49,697 bases of DNA. Source: a phage. This document shows, in pieces, positions 2,937-12,517 of this stretch. The stretch's first letter is position 1, and every line of letters starts with the position of its first letter. The stretch lies in the NCBI GenBank assembly GCA_026165385.1, contig GCA_026165385.1_4524.2; one strand, given 5' to 3'. A program made the translations under genes and the position numbers. Below the pieces are notes generated by a model. It saw nothing but the letters and a program-made list of their open reading frames with translations, made no database searches and was not told where the DNA came from.

Positions 2937-3401
2937 ATGAAATCATACGCTGAATTTTTGACTGAACAATCTAGTTCAGATGTAAAAGCCGCTGCGATTG
3001 CAGCAATTCAAGCAGGTAAATATTCTTACAAAGACGCCTCCGATGAAGAACGTTTCCGTTTTATTAGAGATTTTAAAGCCGAAGGTTTTACTAATGCTAA
3101 TACTGTTAGCCGAGTTTTTAAAAGCCTAGCTGCATCAGGTGAATTGTTCCAGAAAGCTACAGGTAAAGCACCTGTGCCAAAAGCGGACCATAAAACAGCT
3201 CAAGAAAAAAATATCGCCAAAGGAATTATTTCTAAGTATGAAGCAATTCTTAAAGAGCTTTTAGTAATCAAAACAGAAGGCCAGAAACTGGCACGAGCAC
3301 ATAGTTTCAAAGATAATCCTCACGCTCATAGCCTTGAGTATGTTGAAGATATCCAAAAACTTATTAAAGACCGCATTTGGTCTGCTAAACAAATCAAATA
3401 A
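2937..3401 (+). CDS. Internal protein-like (capsid-targeted) protein, 154 aa
   Basis: N-terminus MKSYAEFLTE matches the capsid targeting sequence pattern with an L-x-E cleavage-type site; SD AGGAAAAG upstream. Confidence 0.7.
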   Translation: MKSYAEFLTEQSSSDVKAAAIAAIQAGKYSYKDASDEERFRFIRDFKAEGFTNANTVSRVFKSLAASGELFQKATGKAPVPKADHKTAQEKNIAKGIISKYEAILKELLVIKTEGQKLARAHSFKDNPHAHSLEYVEDIQKLIKDRIWSAKQIK

Positions 3402-3523: not shown

Positions 3524-4087
3524 ATGAAAACCTACGCCGAATTTTTAACCGAAGCAGCAAAATTACCATCTGAAGCAGATCTTACTAAAGTATTCTTCCA
3601 CTTAGACCCAAAAGATCGTGGCGATTTTCTTAAATGGAAAGCTAAAGCTATTGAAATGTATAACATCGATACTAGTTCTTTTACGATGAGTCAAGAAAAT
3701 AGTTTCAATAAAGCGTTTTTCAAAATTTCTAAGAAACTGGCATCTAGCACGCAGGTTCCTAAATCCGCCTTAGCTACTCCTGAACGTGCACCTGTTAAAA
3801 TTTCTAAGAATATGTTTGACACTAAAAAATATGTCAATGCTTTGAATAAAGCTCTTGACGCATTGGATGATGCAAAGAAGGCAGCCCGTGATCTTCAAGA
3901 CGTGTACACTGATTTTGATCGTAAAACTAAAGGTTCTATTTCAAATAGCGAACGCAATAGTGTAAGTGTTTATTCTGATAGCCTTGATGTTCTTGGCGAT
4001 GCGTATACTGAAATTAAAAATCGTATTAACACTGCATCTAAGCTAAAAGCTGCTGCCGAAGCTATAATAACTAAACTAGGTAAATAA
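3524..4087 (+). CDS. Internal protein-like (capsid-targeted) protein, 187 aa
   Basis: N-terminus MKTYAEFLTE matches the capsid targeting sequence pattern; SD AAGGA upstream. Confidence 0.7.
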   Translation: MKTYAEFLTEAAKLPSEADLTKVFFHLDPKDRGDFLKWKAKAIEMYNIDTSSFTMSQENSFNKAFFKISKKLASSTQVPKSALATPERAPVKISKNMFDTKKYVNALNKALDALDDAKKAARDLQDVYTDFDRKTKGSISNSERNSVSVYSDSLDVLGDAYTEIKNRINTASKLKAAAEAIITKLGK

Positions 4088-5465: not shown

Positions 5466-6059
5466 ATGAACACACTGAAGAAACTTGTTGAATTCATCCG
5501 CACTAAACTGGGTACTGCTATGGCTAAAAATCTGACTGTCGAAGAACAGTATAACGCAGCTGCAGATAAGTTGATTACCCAAATCAAAGAACTAAAAACG
5601 GCTTCTGTTAAATCTATTAATGAAGAAAAACGTATTCGCGAACTTGTTATTGAAAAGAATAAGCAAGCCGCTTCTAAGGAACGTGAAATTCGTAAGCTCT
5701 TGGCTGAAGGACAAGATGTTACCGTGCATGCTAAGCTTGGTCTTCTGTATCGTCGAACTGCAGAACAACTTAATACAAAAGCTGACGGGTATGCCGCTAT
5801 GCGAATTGAAATTGCTCGTAAGGTGGTTGAACTTGATGATGCTCGTCAGAATCTGGCAATCAAACTCGAATACATTCGTGAAACTCGAGCAGCCAATGCC
5901 CTTGGTATCTCTACGGCTGATGATGTAATTGAAATCGCTGCACTGACTAAGGTTGATATCGAAGACACTCTGACTCGTGTTGAAACGTTCAATGGCACTC
6001 CAGCCGGTGTCGAAACCACTTCTGCTGATGTACAAGAATATATTAACTCTTTGAAATAA
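5466..6059 (+). CDS. Coiled-coil protein, 197 aa
   Basis: ATG at 5466 after SD GAAAGG; long predicted alpha-helical/coiled-coil sequence; any resemblance to PspA/IM30 is too weak to assert. Confidence 0.6.
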
Positions 6060-6067
6060 AATAATAC

Positions 6068-6089
6068 GGAGGACTCCGGTCCTCCTTTT
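6068..6089 (+). terminator. Rho-independent terminator
   Basis: Stem GGAGGAC / GTCCTCC with TCCG loop, followed by TTTT. Confidence 0.6.
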
Positions 6090-6108
6090 GGATAATAAAG
6101 GAGTTAAC

Positions 6109-6711
6109 ATGCGAAACCAAAATAATGATATTGACTCAATGTTCGAAGAGTTCCGAGATAAGGTAAATCCACCTACGTCTTTAGTTGATTCATTACGATA
6201 TGTTGCAACTGGGCGTAAATGGTGCTGGTCAGCTTCTTATGAGACCACTGAGAAAACGGCTAGCCATAGCAGAAAATCTTTATTAGCCCCAGGTATTATG
6301 ATTCATGATATCGGAGCTATTGCTAAACTAGTTGCAGACCATGATATTAGATTCACTGATTTCGTTGCTCCTACGTGGTCTGTTTGTTGTTTAAACACTG
6401 AATGGGAATATATCAGCGAACGTTCAGAAGATTATTATGGTTTTAGAGATAAGCTTCTGAGGTCTAATATGTTTTATATCGACACAGAAGTTCTAGTCGA
6501 TAATAAAAAATATTACTTTACGTTAATCGTCGATTCTGAAACTATGTATGAAGGCAAGCCTTTGCTTAAAAGAGTTGATGCTTTAAGTGCTATTGATGCG
6601 CTTTATGAAACTATGGTTGTTAGTCCTAATTTCACTAACAATTTAATCCTTGAGCAATTTATTATGGAATGTAGAGAATATGTCAAAGCCAACCCTGTAC
6701 ATGCCAATTAA
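6109..6711 (+). CDS. Hypothetical protein, 200 aa; C-terminal region contains an FIMECR motif
   Basis: ATG at 6109 after SD AAAGGAG (track ORF starts at a TTG at 6088); FIMECREY near the C-terminus resembles the tail motif of the downstream membrane proteins. Confidence 0.6.
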   Translation: MRNQNNDIDSMFEEFRDKVNPPTSLVDSLRYVATGRKWCWSASYETTEKTASHSRKSLLAPGIMIHDIGAIAKLVADHDIRFTDFVAPTWSVCCLNTEWEYISERSEDYYGFRDKLLRSNMFYIDTEVLVDNKKYYFTLIVDSETMYEGKPLLKRVDALSAIDALYETMVVSPNFTNNLILEQFIMECREYVKANPVHAN

Positions 6712-7075
6712 GCCCTGGGCATACGAATACAAACGTAAATTAATCCCAAACGAAGTACTATTTGGCCCTATTTTAGCTTTAGCATTTTTAATCTTTATGA
6801 TTATAGGAGCTATTTTAGATTCCAATAAAGTTATATCGTCTGATGCAGCGTTTTCATTAATGTTCGTCGCACCACTTATTGTACCGTTTTTATTAATGCC
6901 TATTAATTGGGTAGGATATTGGCACCAAGGCCGTCATCACAGAGCCCGATTAAGAGAATGGAAAGTTCAGTGCGCAAAAGCCCAAGCTCAGTATGATGAA
7001 GCTGTTAAAAAGTATGAATATGAAGAAGCTATGGAATTCGTTAAGGAAATAAGATGCAAAAGCCTCAACTCTTAA
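6680..7075 (+). CDS. Small membrane protein, 131 aa (start uncertain, alternative 6701)
   Basis: ATG at 6680 lies directly after the conserved GAATGTAGAGAAT junction motif; two hydrophobic helices; overlaps the upstream gene. Confidence 0.5.
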   Translation: MSKPTLYMPIKPWAYEYKRKLIPNEVLFGPILALAFLIFMIIGAILDSNKVISSDAAFSLMFVAPLIVPFLLMPINWVGYWHQGRHHRARLREWKVQCAKAQAQYDEAVKKYEYEEAMEFVKEIRCKSLNS

Positions 7076-7413
7076 CCGTATGGCCGTCTCTTGGTGAGAA
7101 TATTCTAATTTTTATTATGAGTATTGGCATGGGATTTGCCTTTGGATTAGTTGGATTTCTTATTGACGGAGTTGTGTTAGGATTTATAGGGAATACCGGT
7201 GGATTCACAGACCAATGGCAGGACTTACGGTATACCCAAGCCTTTGCATCCATCGCATCATTTTGTACTGTAGTCTATTTTTACTACGATTTTATAAACC
7301 ATAACAAGAAAAATAAAAAGGTTTACGCTTCTCAAATGATTAGTTATAATGAACTCCTAGCTAAACGTGAAAATGAAACAATCGAAAACTTTATTAAGGA
7401 ATGTAGAAAATGA
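7054..7413 (+). CDS. Small membrane protein, 119 aa, C-terminal NFIKECRK tail
   Basis: SD AAGGAAATAAG before ATG 7054; hydrophobic helices; the C-terminal motif is shared with the ORFs at 9562 and 10637. Confidence 0.6.
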   Translation: MQKPQLLTVWPSLGENILIFIMSIGMGFAFGLVGFLIDGVVLGFIGNTGGFTDQWQDLRYTQAFASIASFCTVVYFYYDFINHNKKNKKVYASQMISYNELLAKRENETIENFIKECRK

Positions 7414-7715
7414 GTAAGATTATTGAAATTAAAGTACCAGAGTTTAATGATGCCAAATCTGCTTCAGATGCAATTTATAAACTTCTGAATCAAGCTGAAC
7501 GTATCGAAGAAGAAGCAACAAAGATCGCAGACCAATATGCAGTATCGTTTTCTGTAGGTGATTATGGTAGCGGTCGTACTTATTATCCTAAGGGTGAAAT
7601 CGTATCCCAGTGGATGAAAGATGAAATTGAAAATAATGGTGGCGATGTTAAGCGTGAAGGTAATGGTTACGTTATTACTGAAGGTGCTTGGGTTTCGTCT
7701 TCTGCGTTGTGCTAA
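7410..7715 (+). CDS. Small protein, 101 aa, C-terminus GAWVSSSALC (tandem paralog 1 of 3)
   Basis: ATGA overlap with the upstream gene; the C-terminal WVSSS..C motif is shared with the next two ORFs. Confidence 0.6.
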   Translation: MSKIIEIKVPEFNDAKSASDAIYKLLNQAERIEEEATKIADQYAVSFSVGDYGSGRTYYPKGEIVSQWMKDEIENNGGDVKREGNGYVITEGAWVSSSALC

Positions 7716-7724
7716 GGAATCATT

Positions 7725-7997
7725 ATGTCTAAAGAACAAACCGAACTGGCTGAAGCTGTAGCAAAAATCTATGCAGCTATTGAGGCTGCCAAAGAAATTG
7801 CTGATAAACAAAACACAACATTCGACTTGTATCCAGCTTATGGTATGGGTGGAACCTATCATTCACCCGGACATCTTAAAGCCGATCTTGAACGTTGTAC
7901 AAAAAACGGCTATGCTGAATGGGCTGACGTTTACCAATACGACTACAACTTGAGCCTTGAAGACGGCGGTTGGGTTGCATCTTCTCACACTTGTTAA
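7725..7997 (+). CDS. Small protein, 90 aa, C-terminus GGWVASSHTC (tandem paralog 2 of 3)
   Basis: SD TAAGGAATCATT before the ATG; alanine-rich N-terminal helix and shared C-terminal motif. Confidence 0.6.
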   Translation: MSKEQTELAEAVAKIYAAIEAAKEIADKQNTTFDLYPAYGMGGTYHSPGHLKADLERCTKNGYAEWADVYQYDYNLSLEDGGWVASSHTC

Positions 7998-8006
7998 GGA
8001 AATCAT

Positions 8007-8204
8007 ATGTCTCGTGAATTAGACTGCGCTGTACGTACGGCAGTAGCTGCTCTGGAAAACCTGTTCCAGATTGCAACAGAAGAACGCGAAGAAGTTACAT
8101 TATGGATTGAAGATAACGCAGGTCTGAATCTCCAGGACGCGATCTCATTATCCCACAATAGTATCACTGTTCAAGGCTGGGTATCATCTAGTTATTCTTG
8201 CTAA
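8007..8204 (+). CDS. Small protein, 65 aa, C-terminus QGWVSSSYSC (tandem paralog 3 of 3)
   Basis: SD TAAGGAAATCAT before the ATG, near-identical to the previous intergenic junction; shared C-terminal motif. Confidence 0.6.
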   Translation: MSRELDCAVRTAVAALENLFQIATEEREEVTLWIEDNAGLNLQDAISLSHNSITVQGWVSSSYSC

Positions 8205-8208
8205 AACA

Positions 8209-8246
8209 GTTTACAACAAGATAGGGCTATGTTATAGTAGTCCTAT
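8209..8246 (+). promoter_or_regulatory. Early promoter with stem-loop (PeSL-type cassette)
   Basis: GTTTAC 8209-8214; inverted repeat TAGGGCTA / TAGTCCTA around TGTTATAGT; near copy of the element at 533. Confidence 0.5.
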
Positions 8247-8266
8247 CAAAACAAATGGAGTCCACA

Positions 8267-8506
8267 ATGATTTATTACGAAAGTATCGGAACCAAAGTGG
8301 TTGGTAAAACCATTACTCGTGAAAAGTTTGCAAAGATATTCGATATGCGTTATAAAAAATCTGAACACAAAGGCATCCGATTCGAAGATGCGCACTGTAC
8401 AATTTGTCCTTATAATGAAGACATAAACGGTACAATCGTTCCATTGGTAGAGGCTTCACATGATGACCTCTGGGATGAATATAATATCGCATGTCGTGAA
8501 ATTTAA
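8267..8506 (+). CDS. Hypothetical protein, 79 aa (alternative start 8255)
   Basis: ATG at 8267 follows GGAG; the upstream ATG at 8255 lies inside the ATGGAG SD-like sequence and has no SD of its own. Confidence 0.5.
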   Translation: MIYYESIGTKVVGKTITREKFAKIFDMRYKKSEHKGIRFEDAHCTICPYNEDINGTIVPLVEASHDDLWDEYNIACREI

Positions 8507-8534
8507 GTTAATGAATTAATCCGAGGAAAATATT

Positions 8535-9491
8535 ATGATGTTAGTTATTGGTTCTCGTGCACTTCACTATCATGGTCTTATTGATTCTAACGCTATCAAA
8601 AATAGTGATTGGGACTTTATTGCGGACCAATGTTCTTGGAATGCATTCAAAAATCAAATGATGGGTGTATATGTCCACCAAGATAACCCTGATGTCCAAG
8701 TTTTCAAATGCTTCCATAATGGACGCGAAACTCATTTTGAAGCATATATTGTTCCGGCAATCACTAATGTCCGTGAATTAGTTGGTGAACTCACTCCTGA
8801 AGATTTCACGTCTTCTTATGACCTTTTAAAATACGCCAAGAAAAATTTGACTAAAGATCGTTTGAACGGGTTTTACTGGGCAACTCCTGAGATATGTCTT
8901 GCAATTAAGATGTCTCATCGTTTCAAGAAAAATAATCCATTCTTTTTAAAGACTATGAACCATATTCAGTATCTTCGTGGTAAAGGTGTTACACTGAACG
9001 ATGAACTTACTGAAATTATGCTGAAACGTCAGAAAGAAACCTTGAATTATGCTCACCCGGTTCTTGACACTTCTAAAAGTGCGTTCTTTAAAGATGACAT
9101 CTATACATATGACCATGATACCATTCATGAAGCCATTGCACTAACAGACCGTCCAGCGTATACATTTTATATGAAAGATGGTTCTGAAGTCATGACCTCA
9201 CGCGAGAAGTTCGAATCATTACCAGAAATGGTCAAATTGGCCGGCGTATACGAAGAATCATGTGTACTAGCGTTAGAACGTTCTCAGATTCCTAATAACT
9301 TTGAAATCCATCCACGTGATAGTTTTATGATGGCCCTTGAAAAGGTCTGTACATCAATCACATCAGGATGGTTCCGTGAGTTCGCTTGGGAAAACTACAG
9401 CAAAGTAGTAAGTATGTACCAAAGCTTGGGACATGACGATTACGTCAAACGTTTCAAACAAAATTTCCATATGGTAAAACCTTTCAAATAA
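8535..9491 (+). CDS. Hypothetical protein, 318 aa, possible nucleotidyltransferase fold
   Basis: SD GAGGAAAA; N-terminus MMLVIGSRALHYHGL...SDWDF loosely fits the Pol-beta-type nucleotidyltransferase G[GS]...D.D signature; N-terminus resembles the ORF at 21099. Confidence 0.6.
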   Translation: MMLVIGSRALHYHGLIDSNAIKNSDWDFIADQCSWNAFKNQMMGVYVHQDNPDVQVFKCFHNGRETHFEAYIVPAITNVRELVGELTPEDFTSSYDLLKYAKKNLTKDRLNGFYWATPEICLAIKMSHRFKKNNPFFLKTMNHIQYLRGKGVTLNDELTEIMLKRQKETLNYAHPVLDTSKSAFFKDDIYTYDHDTIHEAIALTDRPAYTFYMKDGSEVMTSREKFESLPEMVKLAGVYEESCVLALERSQIPNNFEIHPRDSFMMALEKVCTSITSGWFREFAWENYSKVVSMYQSLGHDDYVKRFKQNFHMVKPFK

Positions 9492-9503
9492 CTTCACAAA
9501 ACT

Positions 9504-9541
9504 GTTTACACAATTATAGGACTATGTTATAGTAGTCCTAT
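9504..9541 (+). promoter_or_regulatory. Early promoter with stem-loop (PeSL-type cassette)
   Basis: GTTTAC 9504-9509; inverted repeat TAGGACTA / TAGTCCTA around -10; copy of the element at 533. Confidence 0.5.
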
Positions 9542-9561
9542 TAAAACATGAGGAGAATATT

Positions 9562-9867
9562 ATGAAATTAACAGAAACCAATCGAATTGGTCTTTTAACA
9601 ATACTTGCATCACCTTTTTACGCAACTCTTTCTGTTGCAGTATTACAAAAGGCTTACAGTATGGATGGTGTTCCTGGTTGTATATTTTTATCACCATTTT
9701 TGCTATTCGTTGGAGCTTTGTTATTATATGCCACGTCTGGTTTCGACCATAATGTCTGGGTCAATTATAAACGTAAATTGTCCGAAGAAGAACACGCAGA
9801 AGCTCGTAAAAAAGCTATTGAATCTACCAATCTAGAAAATTTCATTAAAGAATGTCGAGGAAAATAA
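9562..9867 (+). CDS. Small membrane protein, 101 aa, C-terminal NFIKECRGK tail
   Basis: SD GAGGAG; two hydrophobic helices; shared C-terminal motif. Confidence 0.6.
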   Translation: MKLTETNRIGLLTILASPFYATLSVAVLQKAYSMDGVPGCIFLSPFLLFVGALLLYATSGFDHNVWVNYKRKLSEEEHAEARKKAIESTNLENFIKECRGK

Positions 9868-9868
9868 T

Positions 9869-10555
9869 ATGAATAGTTCTAAAGTGTTTAATAGTCAAGC
9901 TCGTGCAGTAGGTGGTTTTGCTCATGCTATTAAAAACGACCAGATTAAAAACGAGCCTATGTTCTTCAACTGTAGTTTAGAATTTGCTTATAATAACGGC
10001 GGTCCTATTACTCGCAGCTTCATCATGAACTTGCCGGATGATTGGAACACCGACCAGGTTGTATTTGATTCACGAGTCCACATGCTGATGCCTGGCTGGT
10101 ACCCTGCTATTCCTGGATATCACCATGACGATGTTCCACGCCCTGATATTCCAGTTGGTCAACACTTTATTACTGCAGGACAACCTGACTATGACAACCC
10201 TCGTTACCATTCTGAACATATTCTTGGTCTTGTTAACGCTGATGTGTGTCCTACTCATTTTGCAACAGGAACTGCAGAGTTCAGTCAGATTCCTGATGGC
10301 GAACTTATCTATCGCCAGTGGCACAAAGAAGTCCTCGAAAAAATCGAAAAAGGTGAACTAGAGAAATGGGAAGCTCCAGACCGTACTCTTCTTCAGTTTG
10401 ATTGGCAAACATGGCACACTGGTTCTCGTGCAATTAGTAACGGATGGCGTTGGTTCGGACGTGTATCTCGTAATACAGACCGAGTTAAAAAGATTACCAA
10501 TGAAATTCGTGTCAATGCCCAAGTTTATCTGGAATTCCCTATGGAAGGCTGGTAA
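9869..10555 (+). CDS. Hypothetical protein, 228 aa
   Basis: ATG directly after the conserved junction motif GAATGTCGAGGAAAATAAT; Trp/His-rich, no recognised domain. Confidence 0.65.
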   Translation: MNSSKVFNSQARAVGGFAHAIKNDQIKNEPMFFNCSLEFAYNNGGPITRSFIMNLPDDWNTDQVVFDSRVHMLMPGWYPAIPGYHHDDVPRPDIPVGQHFITAGQPDYDNPRYHSEHILGLVNADVCPTHFATGTAEFSQIPDGELIYRQWHKEVLEKIEKGELEKWEAPDRTLLQFDWQTWHTGSRAISNGWRWFGRVSRNTDRVKKITNEIRVNAQVYLEFPMEGW

Positions 10556-10636
10556 TGATTAACAAAACATATTGGTCTAATCAACGAAGGTATTTCATAC
10601 TATTCAGTAGATTGGACAGGATGTCCATCCTACTTA

Positions 10637-11035
10637 GTGAAACATATTTGCCAAGAATTTAAAATCAACCAGCCAGCAGGTATTATCGTGAACAGATACA
10701 TTAATGGATATCAACCTATCGATGAAGTAATACGAACAACTCAAGCTGAGCTTGAAAAGTTTTTCAATAAGTGCCAATGGATAACAGGATGGATTATATT
10801 TGTACCGTCAGTGTGGTTTTTTAGTACTAAAGTAAGTGCCTTTGCCATACTAGATATTATCGCTATCTTATTAGCATCTACTATCGTAAGTATAATTGGC
10901 GGTATAATTGGTGGAGGTACTGTAGGCATCATTATTAATCTTGTTAAAAGTAGTTTACAAGAACATAAAGACAAGATAAAAGCCAAGAATAATGAAGTTG
11001 AACGTTTTATTACCGAATGCAGGAATTTGAGATGA
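10637..11035 (+). CDS. Small membrane protein, 132 aa, C-terminal RFITECRNLR tail; apparent GTG start
   Basis: The ORF has no in-frame ATG; GTG at 10637 without a clear SD; hydrophobic helices and Gly-rich GGIIGGGTVG segment. Confidence 0.4.
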   Translation: MKHICQEFKINQPAGIIVNRYINGYQPIDEVIRTTQAELEKFFNKCQWITGWIIFVPSVWFFSTKVSAFAILDIIAILLASTIVSIIGGIIGGGTVGIIINLVKSSLQEHKDKIKAKNNEVERFITECRNLR

Positions 11036-11256
11036 GTATAGCAATTTACATTAAATCAGAATCATGTGATAGTTATCTGTACACATACGATAAAGATGTG
11101 TCAGAAGAAAAAATCAAAGACGATCTTAATATGGACCTTGATATGTTCTGTCCTATTGCAGATTACAAACTTGCGGTCTCTAATAGTGAAAGTCCATCTA
11201 AAGAAACGCGCATTGAAGAATTTATGTCCGAATTAATGGCCAAATCATGGGACTGA
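11032..11256 (+). CDS. Hypothetical acidic protein, 74 aa
   Basis: ATG overlapping the upstream stop (ATGA) right after the junction motif GAATGCAGGAATTTGAG. Confidence 0.5.
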   Translation: MSIAIYIKSESCDSYLYTYDKDVSEEKIKDDLNMDLDMFCPIADYKLAVSNSESPSKETRIEEFMSELMAKSWD

Positions 11257-11257
11257 G

Positions 11258-11716
11258 ATGATGAGTAAGAAAAATAAAGTGAAAGAACTATCAGCCGGTA
11301 TTATTTTCCTTACCGAAGATAAAGAATTATTCATGGGGCGTGTAACTGGTTCTCGTCCTAAAGGTTCTTTAGCTCATCGGTGGGATATTCCTAAAGGACG
11401 TGTCGAGCCCGGTGAATCTCCTATCGAAGCCGCTATTCGTGAATGCGAAGAAGAAACTGGGTTTACACAATATGACCCTGCCTTCCTGAAAGACCTAGGT
11501 GAACATCATTACTCAGATAATAAGAATATTCATCTGTTCCTATATACCATCCCTGTAGAGCACGAGCAATTCAGAAACAGTGTTTGTAATTCCTATCATA
11601 CATTCCCAGACGGACGACAGATTCCTGAATTTGATGCATTCGCTTTAATTAAACCTTCTCAATGGGAATATGTAATGGGTAAATCATTATATAAGGTGCT
11701 CACTACCCTCCTATAA
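11258..11716 (+). CDS. nudE: Nudix hydrolase (T4 NudE / e.1-like)
   Basis: Nudix box GRVEPGESPIEAAIRECEEETGF; lies immediately upstream of lysozyme as in T4. Confidence 0.85.
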   Translation: MMSKKNKVKELSAGIIFLTEDKELFMGRVTGSRPKGSLAHRWDIPKGRVEPGESPIEAAIRECEEETGFTQYDPAFLKDLGEHHYSDNKNIHLFLYTIPVEHEQFRNSVCNSYHTFPDGRQIPEFDAFALIKPSQWEYVMGKSLYKVLTTLL

Positions 11717-11750: not shown

Positions 11751-12239
11751 ATGAATATATTTGAAATGCTTCGTAATGACGAAGGTCTTAGACTGACTTT
11801 ATACAAAGACACCGAAGGCTTTTGGACGATTGGCATAGGCCATTTAGTAACAAAGAACCCGTCTTTAGCCGTAGCTAAAGCTGAACTTGACAGAATGATC
11901 GGACGTAAATGCAACGGTACAATTACCCTTGATGAGGCTGAAAAGCTATTTAATGAAGACGTTGATAAAGCCGTTCGCGGAATCTTGGGTAATGCTAAAC
12001 TTAAACCGGTATATGATTCTTTAGATGCAGTTCGTCGATGTGCATTGGTCAATATGGTCTTCCAAATGGGTGTAGCAGGCGTCGCCGGTTTTACTAATTC
12101 TCTTCGTATGCTTCAACAGAAACGTTGGGATGAAGCGGCAGTAAATCTAGCCCAATCTAAATGGTATCGTCAGACACCTAATCGCGCGAAACGCGTAATC
12201 TCAACATTTAAAACAGGAACTTGGAAAGCGTATATATGA
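11751..12239 (+). CDS. e: Endolysin (T4 lysozyme e, muramidase)
   Basis: 162 aa starting [32 protein letters not shown], near-identical to T4 lysozyme including catalytic Glu11/Asp20 context; SD GGGAGG. Confidence 0.95.
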
Positions 12240-12517
12240 AAACATATAGTGAATTTTTATCAGAATCTATTCTTAACGAAGCTACTGACACATTTGCAAC
12301 TAAGCTAGGTGCAGCTTTGGTTGAAGCCGAAAGTCTATTAGCACGTATTTCTGAACTTGCTAGTAAGATAGATACTCGCAAATTTGAACGTACCAGCGAT
12401 ATCGCTAAGCTTGAAGCCTTGTTGCGTATGTGCGATAAACCGGAAGAAATCGCTAAGAACGGCTCGCTAATGAAACAACGTCTTGAAAAATATATTTCAG
12501 GCGCTTCAGAAAAATAG
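12236..12517 (+). CDS. Internal protein-like (capsid-targeted) protein, 93 aa
   Basis: N-terminus [10 protein letters not shown]; ATGA overlap with the lysozyme stop; position matches T4 ipII/ipIII between e and denV. Confidence 0.7.

Follow-up and report, generated by a model that had tools for sequence, protein, structure and literature searches.

We describe a short C-terminal peptide, of the form FI(K/T)ECR or a close variant, that is shared by neighboring gene products in a 49,697-nucleotide (nt) stretch of phage DNA (contig GCA_026165385.1_4524.2 of assembly GCA_026165385.1; the whole stretch is hereafter the window). Across its full length, the window matches Mosigvirus coliphages (RB69-type, T4-like), e.g., ChristianSchoenbein, JK45, and APCEc01, at 96-97% identity, and the + strand holds nearly all of its predicted genes. 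Genes were assigned by PHROG matches, BLAST clustering with T4 proteins, and gene order. When the T4 annotation is set against gene maps of the window and 30 loci, the T4 order e.6-e.5-e.4-e.3-e.2-nudE-e is retained in the window on the same strand. The genes concerned, with lengths in amino acids (aa), are:

5466-6059, + strand: e.6 ortholog, 197 aa, predicted coiled-coil hairpin
6109-6711, + strand: e.5 ortholog, 200 aa (phrog_2607, E 2e-93)
6680-7075, + strand: e.4 ortholog, 131 aa, two transmembrane helices (phrog_2604, E 2.5e-63)
7054-7413, + strand: e.3 ortholog, 119-aa membrane protein (phrog_2330, E 4e-50)
9562-9867, + strand: m101, 101 aa, two-helix membrane protein with its own family, phrog_9798
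10555-11035, + strand: e.2 ortholog, disrupted (phrog_2203, E 1.5e-36)
11258-11716: nudE
11751-12239: lysozyme e

By BLAST, the e.4 and e.3 products cluster with T4 e.4 and T4 e.3, respectively, and the 32 nt overlap of e.5 and e.4 is exactly that of T4. In T4, e.5, e.4, e.3, and e.2 are contiguous, whereas in Mosigvirus ~3.2 kb of extra genes separate e.3 from e.2. This insert holds three WV(S/A)SSxxC paralogs, an 83-aa gene, a DUF7277/DUF7275 gene, m101, and a 228-aa gene. The best-conserved gene of the cluster is e.6, which is always found immediately upstream of e.5, is served by a promoter-like site and a terminator of its own, and occurs in roughly 1,100 phage genomes. Searches of Pfam, NCBIfam, and PDB sequences with the tail proteins and e.6 gave nothing usable, and e.2-e.6 have no function on record in the libraries searched. 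In a precomputed table, e.2 homologs are assigned Pfam accession PF26896.

The first-pass annotation of this DNA had noted the tail on five open reading frames (ORFs), and all five were found where it placed them:

6658-6675, + strand: FIMECR of e.5; the protein ends ..EQFIMECREYVKANPVHAN and stop, and the EYVKA.. that follows the motif overlaps the e.4 start
7037-7054, + strand: variant FVKEIR of e.4; the protein ends ..EFVKEIRCKSLNS and stop
7390-7407, + strand: FIKECR of e.3; the protein ends ..ENFIKECRK and stop
9841-9858, + strand: FIKECR of m101; the protein ends ..ENFIKECRGK and stop
11006-11023, + strand: FITECR of e.2; the protein ends ..ERFITECRNLR and stop

The ORF ending at 7075 starts at ATG 6680 (MSKPTLY.., as in T4 e.4) and not at TTG 6650. 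The peptide FI.ECR matches four times among the 99,390 six-frame residues of the window, always on the + strand, between 6.6 and 11.0 kb, and 1-11 residues ahead of a stop codon. Residue frequencies predict 0.026 matches and 300 dinucleotide-preserving shuffles gave 0.023 (maximum 1), so the motif is not one that AT-rich sequence commonly yields by chance. The looser F[IV].E[CI]R has five matches against 0.19 expected. A DNA pattern, TTYATTANNGAATGYNG, has four against 0.20, a comparison in which the pattern was chosen after the data had been seen. No other real gene of the window has the loosened motif near its stop codon, and in the first 99 kb of T4 it is found in this position only in e.2-e.5; the tail is thus not a general property of T4-type gene junctions.

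Relatives were drawn from 31 IMG/VR loci, retrieved with nudE and e.6 as probes, and from three more distant GenBank phages. Megablast identified L024 as Klebsiella phage Marfa and L031 as Pectobacterium phage PM2, and placed L029 at 92% identity to Enterobacter phage CIP9. Less firmly, the T4-type loci were labeled from their gene content and the likeness of their proteins to those of T4; the labels Gaprivervirus-, Dhakavirus-, CIP9- (L030), and KPV15-type are putative. T4 e.5 ends ..KFVKECREYVKAITIPSK (motif FVKECREY), e.4 ends ..KFVKESRCKSQS (motif FVKESRC), and e.3 ends ..EFVIDCRKIK, while the e.2 motif is FITECRKLK. Tails are likewise present in Marfa, CIP9-like, PM2, and T4-type loci and in the putative Gaprivervirus-, Dhakavirus-, and KPV15-type loci, and each lineage has one e.5-type protein plus two to six more tail-ended proteins, most of them small and membrane-like. 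The consensus across lineages is F/W-I/V-x-x-C-R-K/R or close to it, with variants such as FIKQCRRN, FIDDCRRN, WVKGCRK, WIKGCRK, FIKNCRR, FVKGCRNGRN, FIKHCRE, and FIKYCRK, and, without cysteine, FIKNVRRK and FLKEMRK. Among the more distant phages, Aeromonas phage phiAS4 has ..MFVDYCRRTAPKRD (FVDYCRR) at the end of the gene that follows e.6, and Citrobacter phage Margaery (Pseudotevenvirus) has ..KFIHSCKKNV.. 25 residues from the end of the corresponding gene; within the region examined, no tail-bearing gene follows it in either phage. The e.5-position genes of phiAS4, Margaery, and WSPA score 0.2-3% against e.5 in hhalign and are linked to it by position and motif only. Homolog searches with single sequences reached close relatives only (e.3 retrieved three clusters and five representatives), and a mixed-family profile search was dominated by e.2.

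The e.2 ortholog of the window is broken. Relative to phage 55 and L003, in which the intact protein has 163 aa, an 11-nt deletion (ATTGACGACGG) lies between 10581 and 10582 and shifts the frame after e.2 codon 9. The gene is thereby split into an out-of-frame N-terminal ORF of 35 aa (10555-10662) and a 132-aa remnant (10637-11035), which keeps the transmembrane region and the FITECR tail and has lost the conserved N(I/L)DDGxEG segment. The tail ascribed to the ORF that ends at 11035 is therefore real, but this ORF is the truncated remnant of an e.2 ortholog. By BLAST, the window e.2 clusters with T4 e.2 and with the intact 162- and 163-aa forms. In the T4-type loci L009, L010, and L012, e.2 is intact, 162 aa long, and tail-ended. 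Judged against these loci, T4 e.2 as annotated (102 aa) is itself a frameshifted form of the 162-aa protein, whose last 36 codons survive unannotated (L001, T4 NC_000866, 3485-3961, minus strand): the unannotated frame just upstream of T4 nudE ends ..NNFITECRKLK, which is the e.2 C-terminus. The annotated start of T4 nudE (MQEIKMKTLSAG) falls within this tail. It is probably too far upstream, and the ATG of an ATGA overlap (MKTLSAG), as in L011, is the likelier start.

Whether the peptide or the DNA is conserved was examined in 54 distinct 27-nt sequences from 13 protein clusters. In the F, I/V, C, and R codons, positions 1 and 2 carry 1.0-2.0 bits and position 3 carries 0.14-1.03 bits. All six arginine codons are in use (CGT 17, AGA 15, AGG 10, CGC 5, CGA 4, CGG 1), and cysteine is encoded by TGT (24) and TGC (21). 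The tails of e.3 (GAA AAC TTT ATT AAG GAA TGT AGA) and m101 (GAA AAT TTC ATT AAA GAA TGT CGA) encode the same ENFIKECR and differ at four nucleotides, all four of them synonymous. By our count, a single change in these codons is synonymous in only ~14% of cases, so that four of four is unlikely under drift (~4e-4 by our arithmetic). The same residues stand out in protein alignments: three of the four invariant columns among 23 e.5 sequences are F, C, and R; C and R are the sole invariant columns in the e.2/C75/C107 alignment; and F is the sole one in the short two-helix families. Among 27 e.2 homologs recovered from a search of 5.8 billion proteins, only F154, C158, and R159 are invariant, and every full-length match keeps the tail. 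The first-pass annotation had suspected selection on the peptide, and the free third positions, the fixed amino acids, and the wholly synonymous e.3/m101 differences bear this out. It had also named nucleotide-only conservation as the finding that would tell against the idea; on inspection, the conservation is that of the protein and not of the DNA. These patterns indicate that the tail is preserved by purifying selection on the protein.

An AlphaFold model of the e.2 family, built from the 27-sequence alignment, has a mean pLDDT (predicted local distance difference test) of 77 and ~80 over the tail. A small N-terminal domain is followed by a helix at 75-95 and then by a single continuous helix at 103-161, which extends from the second membrane segment into the tail; there is no PDB fold match to this model. 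On a helical wheel, a hydrophobic residue at -3, F/W at 0, and C at +4 lie within 60 degrees of the hydrophobic moment in a segment that is otherwise charged. The C-terminal regions hold 8-11 lysine and arginine residues, and by the positive-inside rule their helices would be cytoplasmic. Each protein is predicted to end in the last turns of an alpha-helix bearing hydrophobic-x-x-[F/W]-[I/V]-x-x-C-R-[K/R], with 11 more residues following in e.5. In the membrane proteins, this helix would continue the second transmembrane helix into the cytoplasm, and the hydrophobic, F/W, and C positions would form a narrow stripe along an otherwise charged surface. The tails of e.5, e.4, e.3, e.2, and m101 may then pack together or dock onto one partner. 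Because of the end-to-start packing of the genes, one stretch of 20-30 nt serves the tail and also contains the next gene's Shine-Dalgarno sequence and start codon.

We therefore favor, at a probability of roughly 0.55, the reading that the tail is a protein-level interaction or assembly motif kept by purifying selection, with its roles in start regions and recombination secondary. Orthology, peptide conservation, helix prediction, start overlap, and recombinant junctions are demonstrated here; the cytoplasmic location, the interaction function, and the partner are inferred. Within this scheme, m101 would be a lineage-specific paralog of the e.2-e.5 tail genes. Two other explanations of the peptide were discarded. 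The prohead protease gp21 cleaves at the consensus L/I-x-E, and a gp21 site is ruled out by the replacement of E with G, Q, N, S, H, Y, or D in relatives. A CaaX-like C-terminal cysteine box is ruled out by the position of the cysteine, 2 to 13 or more residues from the end.

Several observations weigh against an interaction motif. Cysteine is lacking in e.4, which has I, S, or V instead, and distant variants such as FAKDLR and IIHQARTR are degenerate, so that the motif is not strictly required. All tails overlap a start region, and some Shine-Dalgarno constraint on the K, E, R, and G codons may exist. Homology between the families outside the tail is weak, and tails could have spread by duplication of junctions rather than through a shared functional need. 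The genes are also often lost or broken (e.2 in T4, the window, and L011; e.3 in L004; e.4 in putative Dhakavirus-type loci); whatever the tail does, its role is dispensable under some conditions.

Known systems offer two partial parallels at the protein level. T4 gp43, gp33, and gp55 have C-terminal tails that bind the clamp gp45. As here, a short conserved C-terminal peptide is shared by several proteins of one phage that are not otherwise related, there for one common partner; the motif is a different one, and here most carriers are membrane proteins encoded side by side. In the phage-shock system, with which Vipp1/ESCRT-III proteins are grouped here, the coiled-coil hairpin protein PspA occurs next to PspB and PspC, small inner-membrane proteins with cytoplasmic helices, and the predicted coiled-coil hairpin e.6 is likewise encoded beside small membrane proteins. 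The nine best PDB matches of the e.6 model in Foldseek are Vipp1 chains aligned over their full length, though the fold matches of e.6 are not specific. Neither a Pfam search (no PspA_IM30 match) nor hhalign against an E. coli PspA sequence (0.2% probability) connects the two, and with no sequence support and non-specific fold matches we set aside a PspA homology of e.6. As a long shot, the tail might be a docking peptide by which soluble e.5 and a changing set of inner-membrane proteins recruit or regulate e.6. If that were true, and if e.6 were PspA/Vipp1-like in membrane remodeling, the cluster would be a phage-encoded Psp-like module, perhaps one that shields or remodels the inner membrane of the host in the course of infection and whose membrane adaptors turn over fast by recombination at the tails.

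How far the carriers are related bears on a different explanation, namely that the tails are the historical trace of tandem or junction duplication, with each protein keeping its helix end for its own folding or insertion and no common partner. The genes do stand in tandem in one cluster, and the membrane proteins share a plan: an optional N-terminal part, two transmembrane helices, a basic helix of 25-45 aa, and the tail. An N-terminal M-x-KPS..P motif is common to e.4, e.3, and two clusters from PM2, so that the N-terminus is partly shared as well. Profile-profile probabilities over the full length are 85-96% (e.3-e.2 95%, e.3-m101 87%, e.4-e.3 87%). Once the tail is cut away, the values for some pairs stay at 50-80% over collinear full-length alignments, those for others drop to 24% or below, and m101 has no match. 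The m101 protein is confined to Mosigvirus-type phages (seven protein clusters among 5.8 billion sequences, all at least 75% identical); it matches phrog_2203 weakly (E 1.3e-3) and, in hhalign, e.3 over its full length at 87% and any family without the tail at less than 15%. Hydropathy gives two hydrophobic segments in e.4 and m101, none in e.5, one strong segment in e.3 (a weaker second was read from the sequence by eye), and two overlapping windows in e.2 that together form one long hydrophobic stretch. The first-pass count of four two-helix membrane proteins holds for e.4 and m101, but less clearly for e.3 and e.2.

A single duplicated membrane family, as first proposed, thus has the shared architecture and the full-length profile scores in its favor, but the relationship is weak once the tail is removed and e.5 carries the tail too. 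One duplicated family for e.4/e.3 and their relatives, and separately one for e.2 and its relatives, is plausible from the profile comparisons. The e.5 protein and a 99-aa protein of the CIP9-like loci, which by eye is not a membrane protein, have just the tail in common with the others; since e.5 has no hydrophobic segment, the tail is not simply a relic of one duplicated membrane gene, and by this distribution it extends beyond any single family. In each family it is the top conserved feature while the remainder has diverged beyond BLAST detection. Moreover, e.5 and its putative Dhakavirus/Gaprivervirus counterpart fall into separate BLAST clusters and both keep FIxECREY, and a generic helix end would need no invariant F...CR. 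On balance, a purely historical origin is unlikely.

Each tail also forms part of the start region of the next gene. The five junctions of the window are:

6658-6682, + strand: e.5 tail codons and the e.4 start, ATG 6680
7037-7056, + strand: e.4 tail with AAGGAA (the K-E codons and a Shine-Dalgarno sequence) and the e.3 start, ATG 7054
7390-7412, + strand: e.3 tail with AAGGAA as Shine-Dalgarno sequence and an ATGA stop/start, next gene at ATG 7410
9841-9871, + strand: m101 tail with CGAGGAAAA as Shine-Dalgarno sequence, stop at 9865-9867, next ATG at 9869
11006-11034, + strand: e.2 tail with AGGAA as Shine-Dalgarno sequence and an ATGA overlap with a 79-aa gene

The 79-aa gene likely starts at ATG 11032 (MSIAIYIK, as in relatives), and the e.3 ATG is located within the R-C codons of the e.4 tail. 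In this order the genes overlap by 32, 22, and 4 nt, are separated by 1 nt, and overlap by 4 nt. Such closeness is ordinary in the window: of its 94 same-strand junctions, 47 are overlaps or gaps within 10 nt. Shine-Dalgarno-like AAGGAA, GAGGAA, or AGGAA occurs within the tail codons, in a register that varies from gene to gene, and ATGA overlaps are frequent; together these features suggest translational coupling. A constant spacing of 0-6 nt between motif and start, as first described, is only approximate: measured from the end of the Arg codon, the next start lies at -1 to +10 nt in the window and at -7 to +31 nt across relatives. Folding of the junction RNAs gave no more structure than that of shuffled sequences (z = 0.27, 1.43, 1.98, 1.08, and -1.57), no fold or hairpin common to the five junctions, and no hairpin that would hide the Shine-Dalgarno sequence.

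Two natural deletions have their crossovers in these repeats. Among the T4-type phages, L011 and L015 are without e.2 and have a hybrid e.3 tail, FVIDCRK-LK, in which T4-like e.3 DNA up to ..GATTGCAGGAAA is fused to TTAAAATGAAAACATT from the e.2 tail and the start of nudE. L007 and L022 are without e.4 and have a hybrid e.5-type tail, ..EYAKEVQN-GTA, in which e.5-like ..AAAGAGGTTCAAAATG is fused to GAACGGCCTAG of the e.4 tail and e.3 start. Each deletion, observed as natural variation among the loci, takes out exactly one gene and leaves the start region of the neighbor intact. Gene maps show e.4 missing in five further putative Dhakavirus-type loci. Tail repeats along the cluster supply 9-17 nt of homology for such clean removal of whole genes by recombination. 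The recombination cassette suggested by the first-pass annotation is borne out insofar as junction DNA was used in two natural deletions, but there is neither nucleotide-level conservation nor a common RNA fold, and the cassette is therefore a side effect and not a selected function. A separate case of decay is seen in the Mosigvirus-type loci L004 and L014 (~6060-6141), where just a 27-codon open frame with the FIKECRK tail is left of e.3 before the next gene.

The closest known counterparts of such junctions are the promoter-early stem-loop cassettes (PeSLs) of T4-type phages, intergenic elements conserved as DNA that contain a sigma-70-type promoter and a stem-loop (Arbiol et al. 2010, PMC2839356; Comeau et al. 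2014, PMC4122927). Both PeSLs and tails are short repeats at gene boundaries of a hyperplastic region, with a 3′ end at which the Shine-Dalgarno sequence and start codon for the downstream gene are located, and in both, recombination between copies removes or moves whole genes without damage to the neighbors (PMC2839356). Unlike PeSLs, the tails lie in coding sequence, are conserved at the protein level with unconstrained third positions, and have no stem-loop, their RNAs folding no better than shuffles. No promoter-like site overlaps the tails at 6658, 7037, 7390, 9841, or 11006. Two PeSL-like elements do occur in the same region, at 8210-8238 and 9505-9533 (83% identical over the spans 8205-8250 and 9495-9555). 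In each, the -10 box of GTTTACA-N17-TATAGT is covered by the stem-loop TAGGRCTA..TAGTCCTA, and a Shine-Dalgarno sequence and an ATG come next. Between the two elements lies a two-gene unit made up of the 83-aa ORF (8255-8506) and the DUF7277/DUF7275 gene (8535-9491); m101 is the first gene after a PeSL-like promoter and stem-loop, and at the second element phage 55 carries an additional gene of 66 aa.

In a rival reading, the nucleic acid itself would be the selected object, as an element for translation initiation or coupling, a PeSL-like recombination cassette, or both, with the peptide incidental. Every tail lies within ~30 nt of the next start and has a Shine-Dalgarno-like purine run, ATGA overlaps are frequent, the crossovers of both gene-precise deletions fall inside the junction repeats, and tails survive in decayed genes (the T4 e.2 remnant and the L004 e.3 remnant). 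We nevertheless consider this improbable. Third positions vary freely while the amino acids stay, with Arg switches from AGA to CGT that change 2 nt; the distance from motif to ATG ranges from -7 to +31 nt, and the Shine-Dalgarno sequence falls in different motif codons in different genes; the junction RNAs have no excess structure or shared fold; the sequence occurs at no other tight junction of the window or of 99 kb of T4; and in phages without a following tail-bearing gene, a similar motif persists in the gene after e.6. The start-region and recombination roles would be by-products of gene packing and repetition. A compositional accident of an AT-rich genome we count as already refuted: the DNA pattern of the first-pass annotation was indeed defined after its matches had been seen, but the four peptide copies stand against 0.023 expected, every copy is on the coding strand, in frame, and beside a stop codon, and the motif is retained in orthologs of at least eight phage lineages.

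Other features of the region were noted in passing. Tandem paralogs of 101, 90, and 65 aa lie at 7410-7715, 7725-7997, and 8007-8204, the first of which matches phrog_899; in all three, the residues directly before the stop codon are W-V-S/A-S-S-x-x-C. As many as five copies occur in related phages, where WFNSSMSC and WYPSSC are variants, and these genes are a second family in the cluster with a conserved, cysteine-containing C-terminus. Inside e.3, a strong promoter-like site (7322-7350; TTTACG-N17-TATAAT, 10/12 matches), 40 nt upstream of the e.3 tail, could drive them. Elsewhere in the window, several ORFs, at 242-529, 2937-3401, 3524-4087, and 12236-12517, start with MK(T/S)Y.EF..., and the ORF at 242-529 clusters with T4 ipI. 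Their common N-terminus resembles the capsid-targeting sequence of T4 internal proteins.

The genes themselves are already known as hypothetical T4 genes with PHROG families. The searchable literature returned no papers with FIKECR, FITECR, FVKECR, or FIEECR, and searches by gene name were likewise empty; the shared tail, its conservation at the peptide level, the recombinant junctions, and the T4 e.2 frameshift appear undescribed. T4 is the best-studied large phage, and a tail on four to five neighboring products predicts that they act jointly. The conserved F, C, and R are three residues to mutate, and the tail is a peptide for pull-downs. One short stretch of DNA would have three uses, as a selected peptide, as the start region of the next gene, and as a patch of homology for clean gene loss; the concept of ordered shuffling in hyperplastic regions, developed for PeSLs, would then apply to coding sequence as well.

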